Assembly (NCBI GenBank): GCA_004284765.1
Contig: NQJD01000012.1
Coordinates: 1-32,000 of the forward strand
Source: Candidatus Electronema aureum
GTDB lineage: Bacteria > Desulfobacterota > Desulfobulbia > Desulfobulbales > Desulfobulbaceae
Direction: 5' to 3'
Length of the DNA: 32,000 bases
Of the stretch, positions 497 through 31,706 are shown piece by piece; positions within the stretch are counted from its first letter, which is position 1; each line of letters starts with the position of its first letter. The notes under the pieces were generated by a model that saw only the letters and a list, made by a program, of their open reading frames with translations, searched no databases and had not been told where the DNA came from. The translations under genes and the position numbers were made by a program.

Positions 497-1402
497 CTAA
501 AAAGAGTTGCACATTAGGTGAAATGTATTGTTAATGCGAATTAGGAGTTGAAAATAGGAGTAAGCAGCAACAGTAAGCAGCAACATGGCGGCCGCTAATT
601 TTCCATAGACATGAACAAGCAAGCCCTGTGTTGAGCGAACCTTTGAAGCAGTTTGGATGCCGGTTTTTTCGTCAATCCAGTTGAACAGCGACTCAATGGG
701 CTGCCTGACCATGCTGACAGCCGATGATAGGATTTCGTCCATCACGCTGAGTTTCTGCCCTTTCTTTCTTTTGAACGGCGTATTCAAAGAGGTGTTCTGT
801 TCTTCCAGACGCTGCTTGAGCGCATTGCTGACATACGCTTTGTCCGCATAGACAGAAGTGTCGTGCAAATCGTCGGCAATTTCTTTCAGGACATTAATGT
901 CCGCTGTGCTTGCCGGTGTGATTCCGATATAATCAGGCAGAGGAAGCCGCCCATTTCTTCGGACAGCAAAGATATGGAGCTTGAGGCCGCAAAAATACGT
1001 TTCTTTGACGGAATTATACCCTTTGTCGTTGATTTCACGGGAAACTTTCGCCCGGCTGCTGCGCCGGGCGTTTGCGGTCATGATCGGCATGGAGTCGATC
1101 AGGTGGACATATCCTGCGTCAGGCAGCGGAGCGAAATCATTCTGAATGAGAGAAAGCAGTCCGGCAAAAACTTGAGGGAGACGGTTCAGTCGCTGAATAT
1201 ACGTTGCATATGCCCGAAGTTTTGGAAACCATTCCTTCAGATGATTCCGAACGTATTCATAACTAGGCTTCACTTTCCGGTGACCATTCATAATCCCCCA
1301 CAAATAAACCGTCAGAACCTCGGCATCGCTGAATTCTGGATTGGAATTGTTGCTCATCCGTTCTGCACAAATAAACAGGCCGGATGCGCGATGCTTGTCC
1401 AT
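497..1402 (-). CDS. IS982-family DDE transposase
   Basis: 301-aa ORF. It has an N-terminal FSDAEVLTVYLWGI block, then HLIDSMPI, VYADKAY and RQPIESLFNWI..KVRS..GL..HVY blocks that I recognise as IS982-type. The ORF reads through the left IR (535-549) and stops only at 497-499 in flanking DNA. An alternative start is M16 at 1357. Confidence 0.85.
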   Translation of the reverse strand: MDKHRASGLFICAERMSNNSNPEFSDAEVLTVYLWGIMNGHRKVKPSYEYVRNHLKEWFPKLRAYATYIQRLNRLPQVFAGLLSLIQNDFAPLPDAGYVHLIDSMPIMTANARRSSRAKVSREINDKGYNSVKETYFCGLKLHIFAVRRNGRLPLPDYIGITPASTADINVLKEIADDLHDTSVYADKAYVSNALKQRLEEQNTSLNTPFKRKKGQKLSVMDEILSSAVSMVRQPIESLFNWIDEKTGIQTASKVRSTQGLLVHVYGKLAAAMLLLTVAAYSYFQLLIRINNTFHLMCNSF

Positions 1403-2096: not shown

Positions 2097-3104
2097 TTAC
2101 TTCTCAAACAGATTAGCAAGACCACCGATCACCGAACCTTGATCCACGCCCTTGCCTCCGGTCTGTGGCGCAGCCGTCCAAATTCTTCCAGCAAGACGTG
2201 AGAAAGGCAGTGATTGCAGCCAAACATGTCCCGGCCCCCGCAGCGTCGCAAAGAAGAAGCCTTCACCACCAAAGACCGCTGATTTAACGTTGCCCACATA
2301 CTCAATGTCGTACTTCACCGTCTGCGTCAGGGCAACGAGACAGCCCGTGTCAACCCGCAAGGTCTGGCCTGCTGCCAGTTCACGTTCAACAATGGTACCG
2401 CCCGCATGGACAAAGCAAAGGCCGTCGCCGTCTAATTGCTGCATGATGAAGCCTTCGCCACCGAAGAGGGCCACGCCGATCTTCTTCTGGAACGCCACGC
2501 CCACGGCAACTCCTTTAGCTGCGCAGAGGAAGGCATCTTTCTGGCAGATGATCCGTCCGCCGTATTTGCTCAGATCAAGCGGAATAATCTTGCCCGGATA
2601 CGGCGCAGCAAAGGCCGCTCGCCCCTTGCCTTGGCCGATAAAGGTAAACACGGTGATGAACAAACTCTCGCCGGTGATCAATCGCTTGCCTGCACCGAGC
2701 ATCTTATCAAAGAAGCCGCCCGACTGTGAGGAAGCAGAGCCGTCTCCGAAGATAGTATCCATGCGGATGCCATCGCTCATGTACATCATACTGCCTGCTT
2801 CAGCGATCACACTTTCCTGCGGGTCCAGCTCAACCTCAACAAACTGCATTTCATGTCCGAATATCTCATAATCAATCTCATGAGCATGATGACGGCTCAC
2901 CATAGGCGGGGGAGCTTGCCGCCCAGCTGCTGCGCTCGGATTCGCCAGTTCAGCGACTTGAGCAATCGGTAGCCAGTCGGAAAAACCCTCGCGCCAGACC
3001 ATTGTTGCGCTATTGTACTGCCCTGAACGCAGTCCGGCGAGTAGCTGATCTTGAGAAAACGGCCCTACAGTTTGTCCATTGACAGCAACATACCAATTGT
3101 ACAT
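2097..3104 (-). CDS. GYF_2 (DUF4339) domain fused to an AIM24/TIGR00266-family (DUF124) protein
   Basis: The N-terminus [47 protein letters not shown] is the bacterial GYF_2 motif. The remainder ([65 protein letters not shown]) fits AIM24/DUF124. An AGGAGG lies upstream, and the start is 2 nt after the bioG stop. Confidence 0.75.
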
Positions 3105-11301: not shown

Positions 11302-14300
11302 CTATCTGTATAACCAAACTCGCATCATCGACAGCAACCGCTCTAAGTCAATCGGCTTGGCCAAGTAGTCGCTGGCTCCGGCCTCAATACACTTTTCCCG
11401 GTCTTCCTTCATTGCCTTGGCAGTCAGGGCAATCACCGGCAGATCGCGGAACTCGCGCTGCGCCCTGATCTTACGGGTGGCCTCGTAGCCGTCCATCTCT
11501 GGCATCATGATGTCCATCAGCACTAAATCAATTTGCCCGTCTTCAGCTAAAGCCTTCAGGGCTTTCTTCCCATCTTCAGCGATGATCACTTCCATGCCTT
11601 TGTCCTCTAAAATACCAGAGAGGGCAAAGACATTCCGCATGTCATCATCAACCAAAAGGATACGCTTGCCCTTGAAGATGTTCTCTTGATCGTACAGTCC
11701 GGTGATGATCTCTTGCTTCTTGTCTGGCATTTGCTCCACCACCCGATGCAGAAAGAGCGAGGTCTCGTCTAAAAGCCGTTCGCGGGAGCGGGCATTCTTA
11801 ATGATGATCGACTCGGCATACTTGTTCAGCTCTTTCTCCTCGTCGCGGCTCAGTTCCCTACCAGTGTAGATAATCACCGGCGGCACCCTGAGACCTTGCT
11901 CGGCGACTAACGTGCGCAGCAGCTCGATGCCGTTGCAGTCGGGTAAGCCTAAGTCTAAGACCATGCAGTCGAACTGCTGGCTGTGCAGCAATTCATTGGC
12001 TTCTGCACCGGTCTTGGCCTCCTCAATCACGGTGTCCTCGCTGCCTACCAGCTCAACCAAAGCGGCTCGCAGGACATTGTCGTCCTCCACCACCAAAAGT
12101 CGCTTGACCTTGCTGCTACTGATTGACTCAAAGCGGGCCAGTGCCTCAGCGATCTGTTCCTGATCTACTGGCTTAGTGAAGAAGCCCACCGCACCCTGCC
12201 GGAAGGCTTCTCGACTGCCTTCCTCCACTGACATCATATGTACCGGGATATGCCGGGTGCTGGGATTGGTCTTCAGACTGGTTAGCACGGTCCAGCCGTC
12301 AATGCCGGGCAGCTTGATGTCAAGGATAATGCCAGTGGGCTGATGCCGCTCGGCCAGCTGAAGTCCCTCTTCACCGGTCTCAGCAGCCAAGACTTTGAAG
12401 CTGCGCTGACGGCATTGATCCATGAGAATCTTAGCGAACTTGCGGTCATCCTCAATGATCAGGATGCTGCGCGTCTCAGGAGTCAGGCGGTTGCGGTCGT
12501 CAGTAGGTATCTCCTGCGGCGGCTGCTGTCTGGGTGATAACGAGAAGGCAGCAGGCCGAGGCGGTGCAGTCGGTGTTCTTTCCTTTTCGTCTGGGGTCTC
12601 AGGACAGCTCAGGGGTAGATAGAGGGTGAAGACTGAGCCTTTGCCCGGCTCACTGACGAGTTGAATCTCGCCGCCAAGCAACGCAGCTAACTCCCGCGAA
12701 ATCGACAAGCCAAGGCCAGTACCGCCGTACTTGCGGCCAGTGGAGCCGTCTGCCTGCTGGAACGCCTCAAAGATGATCTTCTGCTTATCCTGCGGAATGC
12801 CAATGCCGGTGTCAGTCACGCTGATCGCAATACTCTCGTCAGCCAGCAAACCCTCACGGCGGAGGCGAGTGTTCTTTGGCGGTTGGGTGAAAGCCAGCCT
12901 AACGCTGCCTGTTTCAGTGAACTTGATGCTGTTGCCGATGAAGTTCTTCACAATCTGCTCGATTCGCTTGCGGTCGGTGAAGATGTTCTCTGGCAAGGCG
13001 GGATCAATGCTGACCGAGAACTCTAACCCTTTCAGCTCGGCCATGTGCCGGAAGAGATTGCGGGCGTTCTCAGCCACCTCGGTCAACGGCACTTCCTCGG
13101 CTTCCACTTCCACCCGACCTGCCTCAATCTTAGACAGATCAAGTATCTCGTTGATCAGGTTGAGCAGGTCTTTACCTGACTCAACAATCACTCCGGCAGC
13201 TTCCTGCTGATGTTCGGTCAGATTGCCCTGCTTGTTATCCGATAGCGTCTGGGAGAGCAGCAGCAGGCTGTTGAGCGGGGTGCGCAGCTCGTGGCTCATG
13301 TTGGCCAAGAACTCGGACTTATACTTGGAAGCCAAGGCTAAATCGCGCGAACGCTCCTCAATCTCCTCGCGGGCGGCAATCAGCTCTTGGTTGCGTGTCT
13401 CAATCTCATTCTTCTGTGAGATCAGTGCCTCGGTTTTCTCTTTGAGGCGGGAGTTGGTGGCCTCTAACTCCGCTTGCTGGCTTTCTAATTCCTCTTGGAA
13501 CTCTTTCAGCGCAACGGTCTGCGCCTCTAATTCCTCGTTGGTCGTCTTCAGCTCTTCGCTCTGATGCCGCAGTTCCTCAGACTGCCGTTGGGTCTCTTCC
13601 AGCAGCTCCTGCACCTCTTGGCGACGACGGGCGACATCAAAGACAATGGCAATGCTGCTGGTTACATCGCGGAGGAAATTCATATCCGCATCAGAGAATT
13701 CTTTGAACGAGGCCAGCTCAATCACACCCACCAACCGGTCTTCATGAAGAAAAGGAGCAGCCACGATGTTACAAGGCGCAGCGTCACCCAGCGTCGAGCT
13801 GATGCGAACATAGCCTTCAGGTAGATCAGTGACAGAGATGAGCGACTTCTCCAGCGCGGCCTGCCCGGCCAACCCCTCGCCCAGCTCAATCATCGAATTG
13901 AGGCCCTTGCGTTTACTGAAGGCGTAGCTGCCGGTCATAAGTAAGGCTTTTCCACTTTTGTCAGCAAGATAAAGCGAGGCCATCTGCGCACCAAGATAGC
14001 GGACGAGAAAGCTGGTGATGGTCTGGGCCAGCATTCGTGCATCCTGCTGTCCTCGAGTCTGCTCAGACAACTCAGCGATGCCAGCCTTATGGCGGAAGTT
14101 CTTGGCCACCGTATCAACCATAAAGTCGAGCGCATCGGCCAGCTGGCCGATTTCATCCGAACGCCGCAGATGAAGCCGCTGCGTAAGGTCACCTGCGGCA
14201 ATGATATCTGCCACTCCTGCTGCATAGATAATTGGCTTGCTGATTGAACGGGCAATGAACCACGCTACCGCACCCACTGCCAAAAAAGTCAGCAGCAGGG

Positions 14301-15375
14301 CAGCGATGATGGAGTTCACCACTTGACGGCTTGCCTCGGCACTGGTCTTGTTCATCACGGTCTTGTAGCGCAGGGCTTCACTCTCGTTGACCTCGCAAAT
14401 CAGTGCCCAGCGCACGCCAAAGACATCAACCGAACTCCACGAGGACAGCACTGTGTTACCCAGATAATCCGTAATAACTCCGGTGCCGCTTTCGCCTTTG
14501 AGTGCGTTGCGGCTGGCCTCAGTGTTGACTTTGTTGCCCTGCCGAAAAGACTCCACCCGACTGTAGCGTTCCGGGGCCACCAATGAATCAGACCGCATGT
14601 AGCCGTCCTTGCCCACTAAATACGCCTCTAATGTTTTTTTATGCTCAGAGACTAACCTGATCATATTCCGCAGTGCTTCTGTGGAAGGCTGCACTGCCAG
14701 AAAGATATTGCCTTCGCCCTTGTTCTTGATTCTAGTGATGAGAAAGGCAGAAGGCTCGTTATTGAGTGGTGCGTAGGGCGCGTAATCGCCAAAAGCCATC
14801 TCTTGGCCAGAGTTCTGCTGGAGTTGAGCAAAAGCCCTGCCTAATGAACTGCTCATCAGTGGCGGACGACTGAGAGACAGGCCGAGGTCAGAGGCTTTGT
14901 TCAAGGAATAAATGATGCTGCCTTGAGCGTTAATCAAAAAGACGTTGTGCCAGTCAAAATCACGGCAGACATCTTGGAAGAGGAAGTCATTTTCTTTGGC
15001 TATCTTTTGCCACGCATCCGAGCTTACGGAGTTACCTGCACCCGCAAAAACTTGGCCAAATTCTTGAGACACCTGCATTAACCAAGGATTGTCCCGAAGC
15101 ATATACATCTGCCCTTCCATCTTCTTGAAAAAGGAGGCAATCTGCTTTTCCTTGATTTGGCACATGACCTTCAGCTCGTCGTAGGCAGCCTGCTCCACAG
15201 CGGCAACCCCTTGGCCGCCCACCGTCTTCAGTCCCTGCGAGGCGATCAACCACAGCATCACCCCGATGAAGAGCAGGGGAATAATGCCCACACAGAGATG
15301 GGAGGCGATCAGTCTGGTGTGCAGACCGCCTTTGACGGCGGTGCGACTACGGCTGGCGGCTGGCTGGTTCTTCAT
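11302..15375 (-). CDS. Hybrid sensor histidine kinase: TM, Cache-like periplasmic domain, TM, HAMP, GAF, long coiled coil, HisKA, HATPase_c, three receiver domains
   Basis: 1357 aa with two hydrophobic segments (aa ~22-45 and ~353-375). The HAMP region is SISKPIIYAAGVADIIAAGDLTQRL. A GAF-like region spans aa ~440-580. The H-box is FLANMSHELRTPLN, and the G-boxes are DTGIGI and GGTGLGLSISRELA. The three REC domains are ILIIEDD..ILDIKLPGIDG, LLVVEDD..VLDLGLPDCNG and ILLVDDD..LMDIMMPEMDG. Confidence 0.9.
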   Translation of the reverse strand: MKNQPAASRSRTAVKGGLHTRLIASHLCVGIIPLLFIGVMLWLIASQGLKTVGGQGVAAVEQAAYDELKVMCQIKEKQIASFFKKMEGQMYMLRDNPWLMQVSQEFGQVFAGAGNSVSSDAWQKIAKENDFLFQDVCRDFDWHNVFLINAQGSIIYSLNKASDLGLSLSRPPLMSSSLGRAFAQLQQNSGQEMAFGDYAPYAPLNNEPSAFLITRIKNKGEGNIFLAVQPSTEALRNMIRLVSEHKKTLEAYLVGKDGYMRSDSLVAPERYSRVESFRQGNKVNTEASRNALKGESGTGVITDYLGNTVLSSWSSVDVFGVRWALICEVNESEALRYKTVMNKTSAEASRQVVNSIIAALLLTFLAVGAVAWFIARSISKPIIYAAGVADIIAAGDLTQRLHLRRSDEIGQLADALDFMVDTVAKNFRHKAGIAELSEQTRGQQDARMLAQTITSFLVRYLGAQMASLYLADKSGKALLMTGSYAFSKRKGLNSMIELGEGLAGQAALEKSLISVTDLPEGYVRISSTLGDAAPCNIVAAPFLHEDRLVGVIELASFKEFSDADMNFLRDVTSSIAIVFDVARRRQEVQELLEETQRQSEELRHQSEELKTTNEELEAQTVALKEFQEELESQQAELEATNSRLKEKTEALISQKNEIETRNQELIAAREEIEERSRDLALASKYKSEFLANMSHELRTPLNSLLLLSQTLSDNKQGNLTEHQQEAAGVIVESGKDLLNLINEILDLSKIEAGRVEVEAEEVPLTEVAENARNLFRHMAELKGLEFSVSIDPALPENIFTDRKRIEQIVKNFIGNSIKFTETGSVRLAFTQPPKNTRLRREGLLADESIAISVTDTGIGIPQDKQKIIFEAFQQADGSTGRKYGGTGLGLSISRELAALLGGEIQLVSEPGKGSVFTLYLPLSCPETPDEKERTPTAPPRPAAFSLSPRQQPPQEIPTDDRNRLTPETRSILIIEDDRKFAKILMDQCRQRSFKVLAAETGEEGLQLAERHQPTGIILDIKLPGIDGWTVLTSLKTNPSTRHIPVHMMSVEEGSREAFRQGAVGFFTKPVDQEQIAEALARFESISSSKVKRLLVVEDDNVLRAALVELVGSEDTVIEEAKTGAEANELLHSQQFDCMVLDLGLPDCNGIELLRTLVAEQGLRVPPVIIYTGRELSRDEEKELNKYAESIIIKNARSRERLLDETSLFLHRVVEQMPDKKQEIITGLYDQENIFKGKRILLVDDDMRNVFALSGILEDKGMEVIIAEDGKKALKALAEDGQIDLVLMDIMMPEMDGYEATRKIRAQREFRDLPVIALTAKAMKEDREKCIEAGASDYLAKPIDLERLLSMMRVWLYR

Positions 15376-25105: not shown

Positions 25106-27037
25106 ATGACCACGAATTCCATATCCTTCCCCGGCCAGCCCGCGCCCGCAACGTGGCTCAGTGATTTTGACAAATACCTGATCGGAGAAGGTACGCATGA
25201 GCGGGCCTATGAAAAACTCGGTGCGCATCTGGTCTCCTTTGAAGGGAAGGCGGGCATCGTTTTCGCGGTCTGGGCACCCAATGCCCGCGAGGTCAGCATA
25301 ATCGGCGATTTCAATGACTGGGACGGGAAGTGCCATCCCATGCACTCCAGCGATTCCGGTATCTGGAGTCTCTTCATCCCCGGCTTGAAAGAATACACAG
25401 TCTATAAATACCGGCTCATCACCCAGCAGGGCGAGCAGTTTGACAAGTCCGACCCTTACGGCTTTGCGATGGAGCTGCGGCCTGCCACCGGTTCAGTGGC
25501 GGTTAACTTGGACAGCTACCAGTGGGGCGATGGCCAGTGGCTGAACGAACGGGCGCAGCGGCAGTCCTTAGACAGCCCAATTTCTATTTATGAAGTGCAT
25601 CTTGCTTCTTGGCAGAGGCAGCCGGACGAGAAATACGGCAGCCGCTATCTGACCTACCGAGAGCTGGCCGAGACCCTGATTCCCTATGTTCTCAAGATGG
25701 GTTATACGCACATTGAGCTGCTGCCCATTGCCGAGCATCCTTTTGACGGATCTTGGGGGTATCAGGTGCTGGGCTTCTTCGCCCCAACCAGCCGCTTCGG
25801 CACCCCGCAGGATTTCATGTATTTTGTCGATCAATGCCACCAGCATAATATCGGCGTAATCGTGGACTGGGTGCCTGCTCATTTCCCGAAAGATGGCGCG
25901 GGCCTCAACTATTTTGACGGCACCCATCTTTACGCTCACGAAGACCCCCGCCAAGGTGAGCATCAGGATTGGGGTACGATGATTTTCAACTATGGCCGCA
26001 ACGAGGTGCGTTCTTTCCTGATCTCCAACGCCCTGTTCTGGATTGATAAATATCACATTGACGGTCTGCGAGTGGATGCGGTGGCCTCGATGCTCTATCT
26101 CGATTACTCGCGCAAAGAAGGCGAGTGGTTGCCCAACGAGCACGGCGGTCGCGAAAATTTGGCCGCGATCAGTTTTCTCCGCAAGACCAACGAGGTGGTG
26201 CATGGCCTGTTTCCGGGCGTTCTCACTATTGCCGAGGAATCGACCTCTTGGCCGATGGTCTCGCGGCCCACTTGGTCAGGTGGCCTCGGCTTCAGCCTGA
26301 AATGGAACATGGGCTGGATGCACGATACCCTCAGCTATATGTGCCACGACTCGATTCACCGCCGTTTTCATCACAACGAAATTACCTTCGGGATGCTCTA
26401 CGCCTTCCATGAGAATTTCATCCTGCCGATTTCGCATGATGAGGTAGTGCATGGCAAAGGCTCCTTGGTCAACAAAATGCCCGGTGACGACTGGCAGAAA
26501 TTCGCTAATTTGCGCGCTTATCTTGGCTTCATGTGGAGCTATCCGGGCAAAAAGCTGCTCTTCATGGGTTGCGATTTTGGCCAGTGGCAAGAATGGAATC
26601 ACGACAAGGGATTGGAATGGCAGGCATTAGAAGCAGAAAATCATCAGGGTGTACAGCGTTTTGTGCAGGACTTAAACCAAGTGTACAAAAATGAGCCTAC
26701 CCTGCATGAGAACGACTACGACTGGACCGGCTTTTCTTGGATCAACGCTAATGATTCGGACAACTCGGTGTTTTCCTTCATTCGTCGAGCAAAAAACACT
26801 GGCGACCAGTTGGTGGTGGTTTGCAATTTAACCCCAGTGGTGCGGGAGAAATACCGGATCGGTACGCCTCAGGGCGGCGAATGGCGCGAACTGATCAACA
26901 GCGATTTAGCGATATACTGGGGAAGCGGCATTAGCAGCGGCGTGACCGCCAGCCAGTCGGAACCGTCGCATGGCTGTGAGCATACTCTTGAGCTGACCTT
27001 GCCGCCGCTCTCTGTCCTGATTCTGAAACCGGCCTGA
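25106..27037 (+). CDS. glgB: 1,4-alpha-glucan branching enzyme
   Basis: The start is set at ATG 25106 (MTTNSISF), with AAGGTG upstream. It carries [50 protein letters not shown] and [12 protein letters not shown], which are the GH13 branching-enzyme catalytic blocks. Confidence 0.9.
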
Positions 27038-27106
27038 TTTTTTACCGCCAGCCTGCTATCTGACCTGATATATTGTTCATCACAAACGCAACTTAGGGGT
27101 TTTAAC

Positions 27107-30100
27107 ATGACATTCACACCAAAGCGCACCGCTCTTTATATTACAGTCGGCATTTTAGCTTACATCGCTCTTGCAAGCTACCACGGGCATCTCAAAAATC
27201 GTTATGCCGAAGCCGATGGCCAAGGGCATAAAGAGGTCAGTCAGCAACAAAATCAGGCTGATGCGTACGCAAAAGAAATAGATGCAGCAAGAATTGCGGC
27301 AGGCGAAGCGCGGGCAGAAGAGCAAATGGTACGCAAAGAGCTTGAAGGATCCCAAGCAGCAGTGAAAAAAGAACGGGCGCTTCAGTTTCAGCTCAAAACT
27401 GAATTAGCCCGGCAGCAGGAGGCAGCACAAGCTGCTGTCGTTCAGCATGAGATGCAAATCAAGGCATTACAGGAGGAGCTGAACAATGCGAATAGCAAGA
27501 TTGAAGCTCTCAGCAAAGATGAAAATGCCGCCAGTCGCCAGCTGTTAGAAAAACTGAAGCAGCGCGAGGAAGAGCTTGCTCGCTCGCAGGTTACTGCTTT
27601 AGAGCTGGAGCAGACCAAACAGTCTTTGGCCGCCGAGCTGGAAAAAGTGCAGGCGGAATATCAGCAGGAGAATACCGCTGCTGCCCAGAATCAAGCGGCT
27701 GCGGCTGAAAAGCTGCAAACGCTGGAGCAAGAATTGGTTCAGCGACAGGAACATGCCGCAGAGTTGGAAAAAGTGCGAGCAGAATATCAGCAAAGCCGGA
27801 CGGAAGCGGATAGCCGCATAGCTGAACTGACTCGTCAAGTAGAGCAAGCTGAAACTGAGCTGGACGCGGCGCAAAAGCAAGTTGCCATTTTGGAGGAGGC
27901 CCAGCGTAAGACTGACCTGAAAGCTGAAGCCTTGATGCAATACGGCAAAGAGCAGGAAGAGAAGTTGGCTCCAACCGAGCAGCAAGTAGCTGAACTCCAG
28001 AGCCAGAATGTGGCACAGCAGGAGCAGGTAGCAACAGCTCAAAAGCAACTGCAACAGCAACAGACGCAGTACGTTGCTACACGCCAAGAGCTGGAAAAGG
28101 TTATCGCTGAACGCACTCAGCTGACGGGCGAGATCAAAAAAATAACCGAGCAACTGGCAACAGCTCAAAAGCAATTACAACAGCAACAGACGCAGTACGT
28201 TGCTACACGCCAGGAGCTGGAAAAAATTACCGCTGAACGCACTCAGCTGACGGGTGAGATCAAAAAAATAACCGAGCAACTGGCAGCGAAGGAAGGCGAG
28301 GCGGCCCAGCAGGGCGGTAAGGCGCAGGCTGCGGCGGCTAAAATCGTTGAACTCCAGCTGGCCTTGCAAAAAGCTGAGGTAGCTAAAGCCGCTGCTGAAA
28401 AAATTTCGGCAGAGATTGGACAGCAAGAGGAAGCCCGGCAGACCGCTCTGAGCGAGCAACAGGCCAAGTTAGATAATCAGAAAACGCTGCTGATAGAAAA
28501 CGCTGCTCGTATTTCTGAATTAGAAAAATCCTTAAAGGAAGCACAGCTTAAAGCTGAGGCCATGCTTCAGTACGGCAAGCAAAAGGCGCAGGAGTCCGCG
28601 CCCTCGGAGCAGCAAATTGCCGAGCTGCAAAGCCAGTTAGCTGAAAAGCAACAGCAGGTAGACGCAGCCCAGCAGCAGCTGAAAGATGCAGAGACCAACG
28701 GGCAGGAATTAGTAACTCAAGTTGCCGGGCTGACTGAAGCAAAAACCGTGCAGGAAAAGGAAGCCCAGCAGCAGGCGCAGGAGCTTGAGCAGAAGACCGC
28801 TGCGGTCGCCGAGCTGGAAAAGCAGCTGGCTGAAACACAGGTAGCCTTAAAAACTGCCGAAGAAGCTGTGGCTGCGGCAGCAGCAAAAGAGCAAGGTCTC
28901 CAGCAGGGTTTGACTGGCAAAGGTGAGGAGCTGACGGTTCTCAAGACGGAAAGCGAGAAACTTCAAGCCGAGTTAGCTGAGAAGAATAAGCAAGCGGAAG
29001 AATTGAGCAATCAGCTCACTGCACTCACCGCTGAAAAAGAAAAATTGACTGGTGAACTGACTGCGCTCACAGAAAAACAGACCACCACTGCCCAGCAGTT
29101 GGAAGAAAAAACCACTGCGCTGGCAGCAGCAGTGACCGCTGCTGAAGAGTCGAGCAGCAAAATTACTGCTTTAGAGACTAAGGCTGCCGAGGCAGACAAG
29201 GAGCTGACCGCCCTTCGCGAAAAAACTGCGGCTCAAGAGGCACAGTTAGCCGAACTCCAATCGATTCAGCAAAAGGTGCAGGCTGCTCAGGAGCAAGTTA
29301 CTACCTTGGAAGCAGAGGTTGCCAATAAACAAGCATTGCAGGACAGCTTGGCTGCCGCACAGGGAAAGGTTGCCGCTTTGGAAGGTGAGCTAACGCAGGC
29401 CCAAGCGCAGGTTACGGAGTTAGCTACGTTAAAAGAGAAGGCCGCAGGACTGGAGGCGCAGCTTGCAGATTTGAAGACTGCTCAGGAAAAAGCGGTTGCA
29501 TTAGAGGCTGAACTTTCTGCTGTGCAAGGCAAGCTGACAGAAGCACAGGCTGCCCAGCAGACGCAGGCTGATGCGGTGGCTAAGATTCCTGCTTTAGAGG
29601 AAGAAATCACCGGGCTGAAGAAGAGTCTTGGGGAAAAGGAGGCTGCACTCGCTCAGACTCAGACACAAGCGGCTGAATTGACTGCACTGAAAGAGAAGTT
29701 AGTGGCTCAGGAAGTTCAAGTAGCTGCGGTTTCCCAAGCGACTGAGCAAACGCAGCAGGTGCAGACAGAACTCACAGCCAAGGTCGCTGAAATTGCTGCG
29801 CTCAAGAAGAGCTTGGAGGAAAAGGAGACCGCGCTATCGCAATCTCAGGCCCAAGCCGAAAAAACAGCGGTGCTGGAAACTGAATTGACTGCGGCGCAGG
29901 CTAAATTAGCGGAAGCAACTGCGGCAGTTCAAACTGTTGAGCAAACCCAGCAGGTTCAGACAGCAACAGCGGCTAAGGTTTCCGGCTTGGAAGAGGAAAT
30001 AACTGGGCTAAAGAAGAATTTGGAAGAGAAGGAAACCGCGCTCGCCCAAGCTCAAGCTCAGGCTGCTGAATTAATTGCTCTGAAGGAAAAATCTACAGCT

Positions 30101-30865
30101 TTGGAAGCTCAAGTTGCAGAACTGAAAACTAATGCCGAGCAGCTCAAAACCGTTCAGGAAAAAACTGCCGCTTTAGAGGCTGAATTGGTTGTCGCTCAAG
30201 AAAAGCTGACTGAAACAGCGGGTTCTCAAAATGCCCAGCAGACACAGGAAGATGCGGCCAAGCTGACTGCGGAACTGGAGGAGAGTCGGACGAAAATTGC
30301 TGAATTGGAGCAGAGCATCGCTGCACTTCAAGCAGAGTTAGACGCACTCAAAAACAAAACGGAGCAGCAAATTTCTCCTCCTGCGGAAACTCAGCAACAA
30401 AATTCTGTTCAGCAATCTGCGCCGCCTGCGGACAAGGACGGTGATGGTGTTGTTGATGCTCAGGATCTCTGCCCAGACAGCGCGACTGGAACCGAAGTTA
30501 ACACAACAGGTTGCGCGGATAGGAGTGCCATTGTCCTTTCTGGTGTGAATTTTACCAAAGGTACTGCGGAGTTGACCGAAGAGGCAAAAAAAAGTCTGAC
30601 CGCCACGGCTGCTTTGCTCAAGCAATCTGCGTCTGATCAAAAATTTGAGATCGCAGGTTACACGGACATTACTGGCTCTTCGGCTAAGAATAAAGTTGTT
30701 TCGCAGCAGCGGGCAGATGCAGTACGAAATTTTTTGGTCAGCCAAGGTATCAAGCAAGAGCAAATGATCAGCAAAGGATATGGGAATGCCAATCCTATTG
30801 CTGACAACAGCACCAAAGAAGGACAGGCCAAGAACCGACGAGTGGAGCTGCACTTGCAGGAGTAA
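27107..30865 (+). CDS. Giant coiled-coil protein with N-terminal hydrophobic anchor/signal and C-terminal OmpA-type peptidoglycan-binding domain
   Basis: 1252 aa. The N-terminus is KRTALYITVGILAYIALASY. About 1040 residues of A/E/Q/K/L-rich heptad-like sequence follow, with no Pro, Gly-rich or Cys interruption. Next come a P/Q linker and a thrombospondin-type-3-like DKDGDGVVDAQDLCPDS. The protein ends in an OmpA_C-like region (FEIAGYTDITGSSAKNKVVSQQRADAVRNFL...NRRVELHL). Confidence 0.85.
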   Translation: MTFTPKRTALYITVGILAYIALASYHGHLKNRYAEADGQGHKEVSQQQNQADAYAKEIDAARIAAGEARAEEQMVRKELEGSQAAVKKERALQFQLKTELARQQEAAQAAVVQHEMQIKALQEELNNANSKIEALSKDENAASRQLLEKLKQREEELARSQVTALELEQTKQSLAAELEKVQAEYQQENTAAAQNQAAAAEKLQTLEQELVQRQEHAAELEKVRAEYQQSRTEADSRIAELTRQVEQAETELDAAQKQVAILEEAQRKTDLKAEALMQYGKEQEEKLAPTEQQVAELQSQNVAQQEQVATAQKQLQQQQTQYVATRQELEKVIAERTQLTGEIKKITEQLATAQKQLQQQQTQYVATRQELEKITAERTQLTGEIKKITEQLAAKEGEAAQQGGKAQAAAAKIVELQLALQKAEVAKAAAEKISAEIGQQEEARQTALSEQQAKLDNQKTLLIENAARISELEKSLKEAQLKAEAMLQYGKQKAQESAPSEQQIAELQSQLAEKQQQVDAAQQQLKDAETNGQELVTQVAGLTEAKTVQEKEAQQQAQELEQKTAAVAELEKQLAETQVALKTAEEAVAAAAAKEQGLQQGLTGKGEELTVLKTESEKLQAELAEKNKQAEELSNQLTALTAEKEKLTGELTALTEKQTTTAQQLEEKTTALAAAVTAAEESSSKITALETKAAEADKELTALREKTAAQEAQLAELQSIQQKVQAAQEQVTTLEAEVANKQALQDSLAAAQGKVAALEGELTQAQAQVTELATLKEKAAGLEAQLADLKTAQEKAVALEAELSAVQGKLTEAQAAQQTQADAVAKIPALEEEITGLKKSLGEKEAALAQTQTQAAELTALKEKLVAQEVQVAAVSQATEQTQQVQTELTAKVAEIAALKKSLEEKETALSQSQAQAEKTAVLETELTAAQAKLAEATAAVQTVEQTQQVQTATAAKVSGLEEEITGLKKNLEEKETALAQAQAQAAELIALKEKSTALEAQVAELKTNAEQLKTVQEKTAALEAELVVAQEKLTETAGSQNAQQTQEDAAKLTAELEESRTKIAELEQSIAALQAELDALKNKTEQQISPPAETQQQNSVQQSAPPADKDGDGVVDAQDLCPDSATGTEVNTTGCADRSAIVLSGVNFTKGTAELTEEAKKSLTATAALLKQSASDQKFEIAGYTDITGSSAKNKVVSQQRADAVRNFLVSQGIKQEQMISKGYGNANPIADNSTKEGQAKNRRVELHLQE
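28031..28282 (+). repeat. In-frame tandem duplication, 2 x 126 bp (42 aa), inside the coiled-coil gene
   Basis: Hand alignment of 28031-28156 against 28157-28282 gives 119/126 identical positions. Both copies encode ATAQKQLQQQQTQYVATRQELEK(V/I)(I/T)AERTQLTGEIKKITEQL. Confidence 0.9.
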
Positions 30866-30881
30866 GCAAGAAGCATATTCT

Positions 30882-30916
30882 AAAAAAAAGAAGGCGGTAC
30901 TGCCGTCTTCTTTTTA
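30882..30916 (+). terminator. Rho-independent (potentially bidirectional) terminator after the coiled-coil gene
   Basis: An A-run is followed by the stem AAGAAGGCGG (30888-30897) paired with CCGTCTTCTT (30903-30912, one G-U pair). The loop is 5 nt, and the stem is followed by TTT. Confidence 0.7.
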
Positions 30917-30995: not shown

Positions 30996-31706
30996 ATGAA
31001 CTTTCATGAACACGCCTACGAAAAGCTGATTGACCTGTACCATAATCATGGGCATGAAGTGGGAAGCGAGCTGCAAAAAAGTGATCCGCTTACTTACGGA
31101 TCATACAAATCCACAAACTGCATCACCTATGTCTTGAATGTCCTCAGTCATGCTTTTGAAAGCATCGGAGATGCTAAAGCATCCCAGCATGTATGGACGC
31201 TTGCGAAGCATGGCACAGAACTGGCTCAGTATCTTGTCACGAAACATGGCTGGAAAGGTATTTATATCAATCCTGATGTAAATCATCCACGTGATGCTCC
31301 TGATCCGCGCTGTAGCGAACACCCCTATTCGCATTATTTAGCCAACAAGACCTGCAAGTATTATAAGATTCCATTACACTACAAGGTGATCAATTATACG
31401 CCAACCCCAAAGGACGATCCTGCCTTTCAGCAGCTCAACGAACATCTCAGTGAAACAGCACTCAATAATATTGACATTGCTGGGTTAGAAAAAGTCAAAT
31501 TTGGTTTTGGTGTTTCCCGTGGAGGAATGCATACTTGGGTTTATGCCGAAGGCTATGTTTATGAAGTACATTGGAATGCAATAGGTGCTGATCTGTATGA
31601 AGCCACGCCGTTGCGTTTGTTTCCTTGGTTGAGCGGCGCAATCGTGATTCCGCCGGATTTGGCCGGAGTGATCCCTGCTTCTGCCAAACTGAGCTGCGCC
31701 AGTTAA
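30996..31706 (+). CDS. Hypothetical protein; putative papain-fold Cys/His amidase (distantly Tae4/NlpC-P60-like), no signal peptide
   Basis: 236 aa with a strong SD (GGAGAAAGAGG). The candidate nucleophile is in YKSTNCITYVLNVL (Cys42). The candidate His is in GVSRGGMHTWVYAEGYVYEVHW (His179). The order and context resemble my recollection of Tae4 (..NACxIRMSYxLN.. and ..GHVTLW.G..), with a large insertion between them. The coding call is solid; the function is an inference. Confidence 0.5.
   Translation: MNFHEHAYEKLIDLYHNHGHEVGSELQKSDPLTYGSYKSTNCITYVLNVLSHAFESIGDAKASQHVWTLAKHGTELAQYLVTKHGWKGIYINPDVNHPRDAPDPRCSEHPYSHYLANKTCKYYKIPLHYKVINYTPTPKDDPAFQQLNEHLSETALNNIDIAGLEKVKFGFGVSRGGMHTWVYAEGYVYEVHWNAIGADLYEATPLRLFPWLSGAIVIPPDLAGVIPASAKLSCAS

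Follow-up and report, generated by a model that had tools for sequence, protein, structure and literature searches.

A very long coiled-coil protein with an OmpA-like domain in Candidatus Electronema aureum, proposed as a tether from the inner membrane to peptidoglycan

How is a protein placed in a bacterial envelope if its rod, when fully extended, is several-fold longer than the usual periplasm is wide? The question is raised by a gene in the 32,000-nucleotide stretch of Candidatus Electronema aureum analysed here (the window; contig NQJD01000012.1 of assembly GCA_004284765.1, positions 1 to 32,000). An ATG-started open reading frame (ORF) at 27107-30865 on the forward strand, exactly as an earlier note made from the sequence alone had placed it, encodes 1252 amino acids (aa; 135.4 kDa, pI 4.8). 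The product, here called the rod protein, has an N-terminal hydrophobic segment, a predicted coiled coil of about 1040 residues and a C-terminal OmpA-like domain. An exactly matching protein is encoded on OW818638.1 of assembly GCA_942492785.1, the closed genome of the freshwater cable bacterium Candidatus Electronema aureum GS (PMC13047784; PMC11976967). We tentatively propose that the rod protein is an abundant structural tether from the inner membrane to peptidoglycan in E. aureum GS.

Domain architecture of the rod protein

The features of the gene, in order along the window, are as follows.

27107-30865, forward strand: whole ORF, 1252 aa, 135.4 kDa, pI 4.8 (exact match in GCA_942492785.1; CAK8711138.1 by gene order).
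27128-27181, forward strand: aa 8-25, hydrophobic N-terminal segment (TALYITVGILAYIALASY), either a signal anchor or a Sec signal that is cleavable between ALA and S (hydropathy, family conservation).
27239-30370, forward strand: aa about 45-1088, predicted segmented α-helical coiled-coil rod with a net charge of about -61 (periodicity, register, AlphaFold2, duplications).
27917-27985, forward strand: hinge motif 1, aa 271-293 (LKAEALMQYGKEQEEKLAPTEQQ; hidden Markov model (HMM) domain aa 256-317, 71.9 bits; AlphaFold2 break 283-286).
28031-28285, forward strand: tandem duplication, 126 bp x 2 (42 aa x 2, aa 309-392; Tandem Repeats Finder, self-comparison).
28547-28615, forward strand: hinge motif 2, aa 481-503 (LKAEAMLQYGKQKAQESAPSEQQ; HMM 77.8 bits; AlphaFold2 break 497-500).
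30371-30427, forward strand: P/Q-rich flexible linker, aa 1089-1107 (sequence; no regular structure in AlphaFold2, predicted local distance difference test (pLDDT) below 50).
30431-30514, forward strand: thrombospondin-type-3 (TSP3)-like Ca2+ unit with Cys1122 and Cys1136 (5wtl_A alignment; conserved Asp).
30551-30838, forward strand: OmpA-like peptidoglycan-binding domain, aa 1149-1244 (PF00691; PDB 5wtl, 2k1s (YiaD) and others).

The OmpA-like domain matches PF00691 over aa 1149-1244 with 79.5 bits (E = 2.5e-22) against a gathering threshold of 27.2. YiaD and 5wtl can both be aligned with the segment GYTDITGSSAKNKVVSQQRADAV, whose Asp (TD) and Arg (RA) are invariant in the family alignments, and the signature GYTD...N..SQQRA is conserved in the domain. 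The domain would be expected to bind peptidoglycan stem peptides non-covalently. Ahead of it, the motif DKDGDGVVDAQDLCP...GC aligns to the Ca2+-binding TSP3 units of PDB 5wtl; the Pfam model TSP_3 (PF02412) scores 13.7 here against a 25-bit threshold and reaches 27.8 bits in a distant family member (P0164). The Asp positions of the unit are invariant or nearly so across the family alignment. Its Cys residues form one CxC pair in Electronema and two pairs in Desulfobulbus-like members, and are absent from most Electrothrix; in the Cys-less Electrothrix only DNDHDGNVD is left of the unit, and the P/Q/E linker is longer in most of them. The order of linker, TSP3-like motif and OmpA-type domain that had been read from the sequence is thus confirmed. 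The Cys pair together with the OmpA-like domain points to an oxidising periplasmic location and, since the protein has a single hydrophobic segment, the whole rod would be periplasmic.

The composition of the rod protein is dominated by A (18.7 %), Q (14.3 %), E (14.0 %), L (10.5 %), K (8.8 %) and T (8.3 %); the whole protein has no Trp and five Phe. The hydrophobic periodicity over aa 45-1085 has a power of 3.88 at period 3.5, compared with 0.81 at 3.4, 0.43 at 7 and 0.01-0.16 at most other periods tested, with a sliding-window z of up to 9. By a crude heptad score, 657 residues lie above the 99th percentile of the shuffled sequence. A similarly crude register assignment gives L 38 %, I 14 %, V 13 % and A 13 % at a (together 78 %) and L 43 % and A 19 % at d (together 62 %), with several stutter-like register shifts along the rod. 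The 3.5-residue periodicity and the composition of the core argue for a coiled coil, rather than a lone charged helix or disorder.

AlphaFold2 (AF2) predicts helices at residues 5-157, 163-282, 287-398, 408-496, 501-601, 606-912, 917-1036 and 1042-1088, with pLDDT of 60-86 in most 10-residue blocks and dips to 38-56 near the helix breaks; the OmpA-like domain is modelled poorly without an alignment. The rod is therefore predicted to be helical, and the possibility raised in the earlier note that the central region might be disordered finds no support in these single-sequence predictions. The same note had called the rod uninterrupted, which does not hold: it contains 3 Pro and 26 Gly and has seven predicted breaks, of which two coincide with a conserved motif. 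Between the two hinges lie the 42-aa tandem copies, identical at 38 of 40 positions (Tandem Repeats Finder score 461, also found by a protein offset-identity scan); this duplication is recent. No Cys- or His-rich metal site is present in the rod, neither the anchor nor the rod is covered by a model in Pfam or NCBIfam, and no relatives of the hinge-motif profile were found in PDB or Pfam.

Family, hinge number and abundance

One genome per GTDB species was scanned with a C-terminal profile and ORFs were extracted, which gave 21 full-length orthologues. An exhaustive phmmer search added 13 distant members, 27-35 % identical and 862-1109 aa long; as the top phmmer matches were mostly multi-OmpA-domain proteins (P0122, P0123 and P0127), members were chosen by the N-terminal motif. 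A search with a chimeric profile of N and C terminus was swamped by short multi-TSP3 OmpA proteins and was taxonomically uninformative, and a full-length word-indexed search was swamped by coiled-coil words, returning one irrelevant OmpA/SPOR protein. The family thus gathered has at least 35 members of 862-2561 aa, with rods of 613-2349 aa. It is an uncurated, previously undescribed family of the Desulfobulbaceae.

Electronema orthologues come from PJ, TJ, JM, KV and E. halotolerans, with only 5'-truncated copies at contig ends in E. nielsenii and JC. Electrothrix orthologues come from E. gigas, YB6, E. marina, E. laxa and two uncultured metagenome-assembled genomes (MAGs), with a truncated copy only in E. 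aarhusensis. Further orthologues belong to MAGs labelled Desulfobulbaceae or Desulfobulbus, including the epibiont Candidatus Desulfobulbus rimicarensis; the paper on the latter uses 'filamentous' only for other epibionts and does not mention cable bacteria (PMC7117923). That the protein might span several cells' worth of envelope, as the earlier note allowed, is speculative. The taxonomic placement of the distant members is provisional, being drawn only from GlgB identity (72-75 %) and synteny.

An N-terminal anchor, at least one hinge, an OmpA-like domain and an upstream glgB are the features of the family, and the rod protein has all four. The hinge motif, LKAEAMLxYGKEKxxxLAPSEQ, is conserved family-wide and occurs twice in the rod protein. 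The hinge HMM finds 2-8 copies in all 15 members of the Electronema/Electrothrix type, and among the 20 Desulfobulbus-like and distant members it finds one strong match in 15 and none in 4; the remaining one, P0164, has one strong match and a marginal second one of 7 bits. The spacing between hinges is 119-266 aa across the family. In the longest orthologue, that of E. halotolerans (2561 aa), eight hinges are spaced by about 172-186 aa. The difference in copy number, at most one strong match in non-cable members and 2-8 in cable bacteria, indicates that the rod has been lengthened by duplication of a hinge-plus-helix module, which would be its evolutionary building block. The E. halotolerans gene itself (OW818675.1, 2912-10597 of locus L009) carries 60-aa stretches repeated without a mismatch at offsets of 60, 186 and 558 aa, which reflect either very recent tandem amplification or an effect of long-read assembly.

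Abundance was taken from a published table of E. aureum GS proteins with intensity-based absolute quantification (iBAQ) and transcripts-per-million (TPM) values (PMC13293266, Data Supplement 2). The accessions there run from RlmD (ending in 123) through LDFHOB_00240 (128), LDFHOB_00245 (133), CAK8711138.1 and GlgB (143) to Fe-ADH (148), an aminotransferase (158), a response regulator (163) and a polyprenyl synthetase (173). As this series matches the gene order of the GS locus (L001), CAK8711138.1, labelled 'Chromosome segregation ATPase', should be the rod protein. Its iBAQ is 74,084,272, about rank 110 of 1274, on a par with the ribosomal proteins L14, L15 and S2 and roughly a third of the Pal value (PMC13293266). 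The protein mapped in this way is present and abundant, which answers the earlier concern that it might be absent from proteomes. Since iBAQ is a per-molecule measure and the protein has a mass of 135 kDa, it would be a major component by mass. An orthologue in E. communis RB (WLE98275.1, 'OmpA family protein'), encoded beside GlgB (WLE98274.1), was also detected (PMC13293266). No mention of CAK8711138.1 was found in the text of papers. Another protein of the same table, CAK8718650.1 (labelled 'Chromosome partition protein Smc', iBAQ 1.2e8; PMC13293266), may share the annotation problem discussed below.

Proposed role and its alternatives

Whether the rod protein is held in the inner membrane depends on its N terminus. 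The sole hydrophobic segment is aa 8-25 (the ten top 19-aa Kyte-Doolittle windows start at residues 3-12), in agreement with the single segment and possible ALA-SY site noticed earlier. No acidic residue (D/E) occurs in aa 8-25, and the first 60 aa contain no match to the lipobox [LVI][ASTVI][GAS]C. Across the family, a Cys is found at the end of the segment (aa 22-25) in only 3 of 35 members, none in a canonical lipobox; a lipoprotein anchor, of Braun type or other, was rejected for want of a lipobox. A 12.7-bit resemblance of the N terminus to DivIC is noise. All 35 members share R..LL..GI..YI.LA.YH..LKK, in which Tyr19 is invariant, Arg7 is nearly so and Gly15 and Ile16 are consensus residues (28-sequence alignment). 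The N terminus would direct Sec export. Because the hydrophobic core and the YH..LKK that follows are conserved beyond what is usual for signal peptides, we somewhat favour a retained N-in/C-out signal anchor over cleavage.

Were the signal cleaved at ALA-SY, the rod would be a soluble periplasmic protein that its OmpA-like end alone holds in place. As a filament or brush bound to the wall, it would be nearer to the CrvA-type idea and would have no link to the inner membrane. This is possible, if rather unlikely. The n-h-c layout of 23 aa would suit it, as would the residues at -1 (A, S or T in all 35 members) and -3 (small in 27 of 35), but a polar c-region is absent, and the core, with its invariant Tyr19 and YH..LKK after it, persists even where overall identity falls to 27-35 %, which is atypical of a cleaved signal peptide.

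For a tether retained in the inner membrane, the length of the rod constrains its placement. At about 0.15 nm per residue, the 1046-aa rod would be about 155 nm long when fully extended, and the rods of the family 91-349 nm by the same rise; about 150 nm is an upper bound, as the rod could become considerably shorter by folding back at the conserved hinges. The earlier argument that an extended rod of this length excludes an upright Lpp-like spacer is sound. Between the ridges of E. aureum GS the two membranes lie almost apposed (PMC11976967) and, with a rod several-fold the usual periplasmic width, this suggests that the rod lies parallel to the wall or zig-zags at the hinges. The almost four-fold variation in rod length argues against a fixed upright ruler. 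We therefore picture the N-terminal anchor in the inner membrane, with the rod, which would be a parallel homo-oligomeric coiled coil, and the OmpA-like domain in the periplasm. The C-terminal domain would grip the stem peptides of peptidoglycan non-covalently, while the rod would roughly follow the wall or bend to and fro at its hinges. With many copies present, such rods would make a dense layer or mesh that would link inner membrane and sacculus across lateral distances of about 100 nm.

If the rod instead folds back at its hinges, it would form an antiparallel multi-helix bundle of a few tens of nm standing roughly perpendicular to the wall, a spacer or strut that sets the local distance from the inner membrane to the wall or to the outer membrane. 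Helical spacers that span the periplasm are known (Lpp, TolA, OmpM/Omp-alpha), and the AF2 helix breaks coincide with conserved motifs that contain Gly and Pro. We nevertheless think this arrangement unlikely, since neither the variable geometry of the family (119-266 aa between hinges, 1-8 hinges, almost four-fold variation in rod length) nor the near-apposed GS membranes (PMC11976967) fits such a strut.

A part in the conduction apparatus, as a scaffold that holds or arranges the fibres on the peptidoglycan-like basal sheath or as a constituent of either the 3-nm strands or the junction lamellae, was also considered. The conductive fibres rest on a polysaccharide (peptidoglycan-like) sheath (PMC8238962), to which a predicted peptidoglycan binder could attach; they unwind into strands of 3.1 nm (PMC11976967), about the width of a coiled coil; the protein is abundant in filaments by iBAQ; and multiplication of the hinge is limited to the cable clade. 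Against this, the family and its glgB context occur in non-cable Desulfobulbaceae, including Candidatus Desulfobulbus rimicarensis, and so pre-date cable bacteria. The amide I band of the fibre sheath at 1643 cm-1 has been read as not α-helical, and all three aromatic types were detected there (PMC8238962), whereas the rod protein is predicted helical and has no Trp and few Phe; its rod also lacks a Cys- or His-rich metal site. Such a part is very improbable. We give a slim chance to the narrower idea that the multi-hinge form is an innovation of the cable clade, an ordered periplasmic lattice of coiled coils on the peptidoglycan sheath that places, spaces or anchors the fibres or forms the repetitive core of the junction lamellae; if true, no structural protein of the conduction architecture of cable bacteria would have been identified before the rod protein.

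The public label of a cytoplasmic SMC-type chromosome-segregation ATPase, or a MotB-type stator anchor, is hardly credible and both were ruled out by missing defining features: NCBIfam SMC models match the rod at 51-68 bits, in the coil only and far below cut-offs of 567 and 729 bits (TIGR02168, 67.7 against 567), with no Walker A and no SMC_N, head or hinge domain in Pfam, and MotB shares the type of C-terminal domain, but the membrane segment has no Asp, no motA-type gene is near and NF006508 scores 40.4 against 259. The sub-threshold SMC matches are consistent with the origin of the 'Chromosome segregation ATPase' annotation, which on sequence criteria is a coiled-coil artefact, and this annotation would account for the rod protein having been overlooked.

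Several points weigh against an abundant inner-membrane tether. CAK8711138.1 was identified through gene and accession order rather than by sequence; its transcript is below 500 TPM and the pooling of iBAQ values across data sets is unstated (PMC13293266). The AF2 model is from a single sequence, with a predicted template modelling score (pTM) of 0.33, and is uninformative on packing or fold-back. The AXA-like site conserved in the family suits cleavage equally well. Finally, a tether does not explain the conserved linkage to glgB described below.

The rod protein belongs, as far as its sequence allows, only to the OmpA-like domain superfamily (PF00691), and no NCBIfam equivalog scores above cut-off. 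It shares the C-terminal 100-aa domain with its TD...N..S..RA signature with YiaD, Pal, MotB/PomB and 5wtl; 5wtl likewise has a TSP3 Ca2+ unit ahead of this domain, and MotB likewise combines an N-terminal inner-membrane helix with it. It differs from these anchors in the insertion of about 1040 aa of predicted coiled coil and in having no stator Asp, MotA partner or lipobox. Lpp, OmpM/SlpA and Thermotoga Omp-alpha are abundant coiled coils that tie a membrane to peptidoglycan. Tethers of the Lpp type reach from the outer membrane to the wall and have a length that fits the gap, about 8 nm for Lpp and tens of nm for Omp-alpha. The rod protein, in contrast, would start at the inner-membrane side, would reach up to about 155 nm, varies four-fold in length within its family and carries an OmpA-like domain instead of the SLH domain of OmpM/SlpA or the covalent Lys of Lpp.

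In TolA, a long periplasmic helical domain rich in Ala, Glu and Lys comes after an N-terminal anchor in the inner membrane, and the N-terminal segment and long periplasmic-type helix of the rod protein resemble this layout. However, the TolA C-terminal domain, the SHLS-type helix motif and tolQR neighbours are absent, and the rod, which is heptad-periodic, has about four times the length. CrvA of Vibrio, with which the earlier note compared the rod protein, is a periplasmic structural filament protein of the coiled-coil type and, to our knowledge, has no OmpA-like wall anchor; the two may be likened by description alone, and polymerisation of the rod protein is hypothetical. Proteins of the PRK09039 type combine a coiled coil with a C-terminal OmpA/MotB-like domain, a layout that is possibly alike. 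Membership of this type was rejected, since its models match only in the OmpA-like domain and far below their cut-offs (NF006542, 45.7 against 305; NF006543, 41.6 against 388); the N terminus of the rod protein is different, and PRK09039-type proteins lack the hinge motif. Nothing useful was found in a literature search for characterised inner-membrane coiled-coil OmpA-like proteins. By analogy, the rod protein may be described as a hybrid of a MotB/YiaD wall anchor, a TolA-like helix and an Lpp/OmpM-type tether. The OmpA-like module was already known; what is new is a modular giant tether from the inner-membrane side that is misannotated in the public record.

We know of no protein of the cable-bacterial envelope (ridges, basal sheath, junction lamellae) with an assigned structural role. 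The rod protein would have the per-molecule abundance of ribosomal proteins, and far more by mass, and would fit a normal periplasm poorly if extended. The family would represent giant tethers from inner membrane to wall whose length evolves by module duplication, unlike Lpp-type spacers tuned to the periplasm, and it raises the possibility of a lateral periplasmic skeleton in some bacteria. Interest would grow sharply if the protein localises to the ridges, the sheath or the junctions.

Gene neighbourhood and transcription signals

The features flanking the gene are as follows.

25106-27037, forward strand: glgB, 1,4-alpha-glucan branching enzyme (Pfam CBM_48, Alpha-amylase, Alpha-amylase_C; called in L001).
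27038-27106, forward strand: spacer of 69 nt between glgB and the gene, with the Shine-Dalgarno sequence AGGGG at 27095-27099 (sequence; no terminator).
30885-30915, forward strand: intrinsic terminator hairpin with an A-run on one side and a U-run on the other (RNA folding).

In all orthologous loci whose sequence extends upstream, the gene glgB lies directly 5' in the same orientation, with a gap of 33-122 nt in the 21 loci where it could be measured and 69 nt here; it is also directly 5' in two distant loci, one from a wastewater metagenome. The 69-nt gap contains no terminator-like fold (z = +0.74 against shuffles) and no sigma-70 site by consensus scan. The sequence TGnTATATT, an extended -10 element spotted by eye at 27066-27074, may represent an internal promoter ahead of the rod gene. 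The conserved short gap and the absence of a terminator-like fold within it favour co-transcription with glgB, which is probably likelier than the monocistronic arrangement the earlier note had thought probable. Its two other statements on expression hold: the gene has its own Shine-Dalgarno sequence, AGGGG, 7 nt 5' of the ATG, and RNA folding places a hairpin with a U-run at 30885-30915. The hairpin (-19.3 kcal/mol, z = -3.97, equalled by 0 of 200 shuffles) was missed by a consensus terminator scan. As it lies between an A-run and a T-run, it could stop transcription from either direction.

Downstream genes vary, and most Electronema have an rlmD-like gene directly 3'. In E. aureum, E. nielsenii and Electronema sp. 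PJ, and only in these, two small ORFs of 236 and 132 aa are inserted there. The 236-aa ORF (30996-31706, forward strand) matches nothing in Pfam and lacks an obvious signal for export; the accession order equates it with CAK8711133.1 (LDFHOB_00245), an expressed protein (iBAQ 1.28e7, TPM 698). No secretion-system or adhesin genes were found in the neighbourhood of the rod gene. In two distant loci of the family (L083, 13965-18280; L086, 9462-14097) the gene lies 3-7 kb from a cluster of ftsE, ftsX, an M23 peptidase (EnvC-like) and CtpB; this link was judged coincidental, as the cluster is missing near the gene in the other loci searched and in the GS locus.

Elsewhere in the window, a hybrid sensor kinase of 1357 aa (11302-15375, reverse strand) combines dCache, HAMP, GAF, HisKA and HATPase domains with three receiver domains. 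A DDE-type (IS4/IS5-like) transposase ORF (497-1402, reverse strand) falls in the part of the window with the lowest GC content (0.425 in the first kb). The ORF at 2097-3104 (reverse strand) joins GYF_2 and AIM24 domains in one protein, an unusual pairing.

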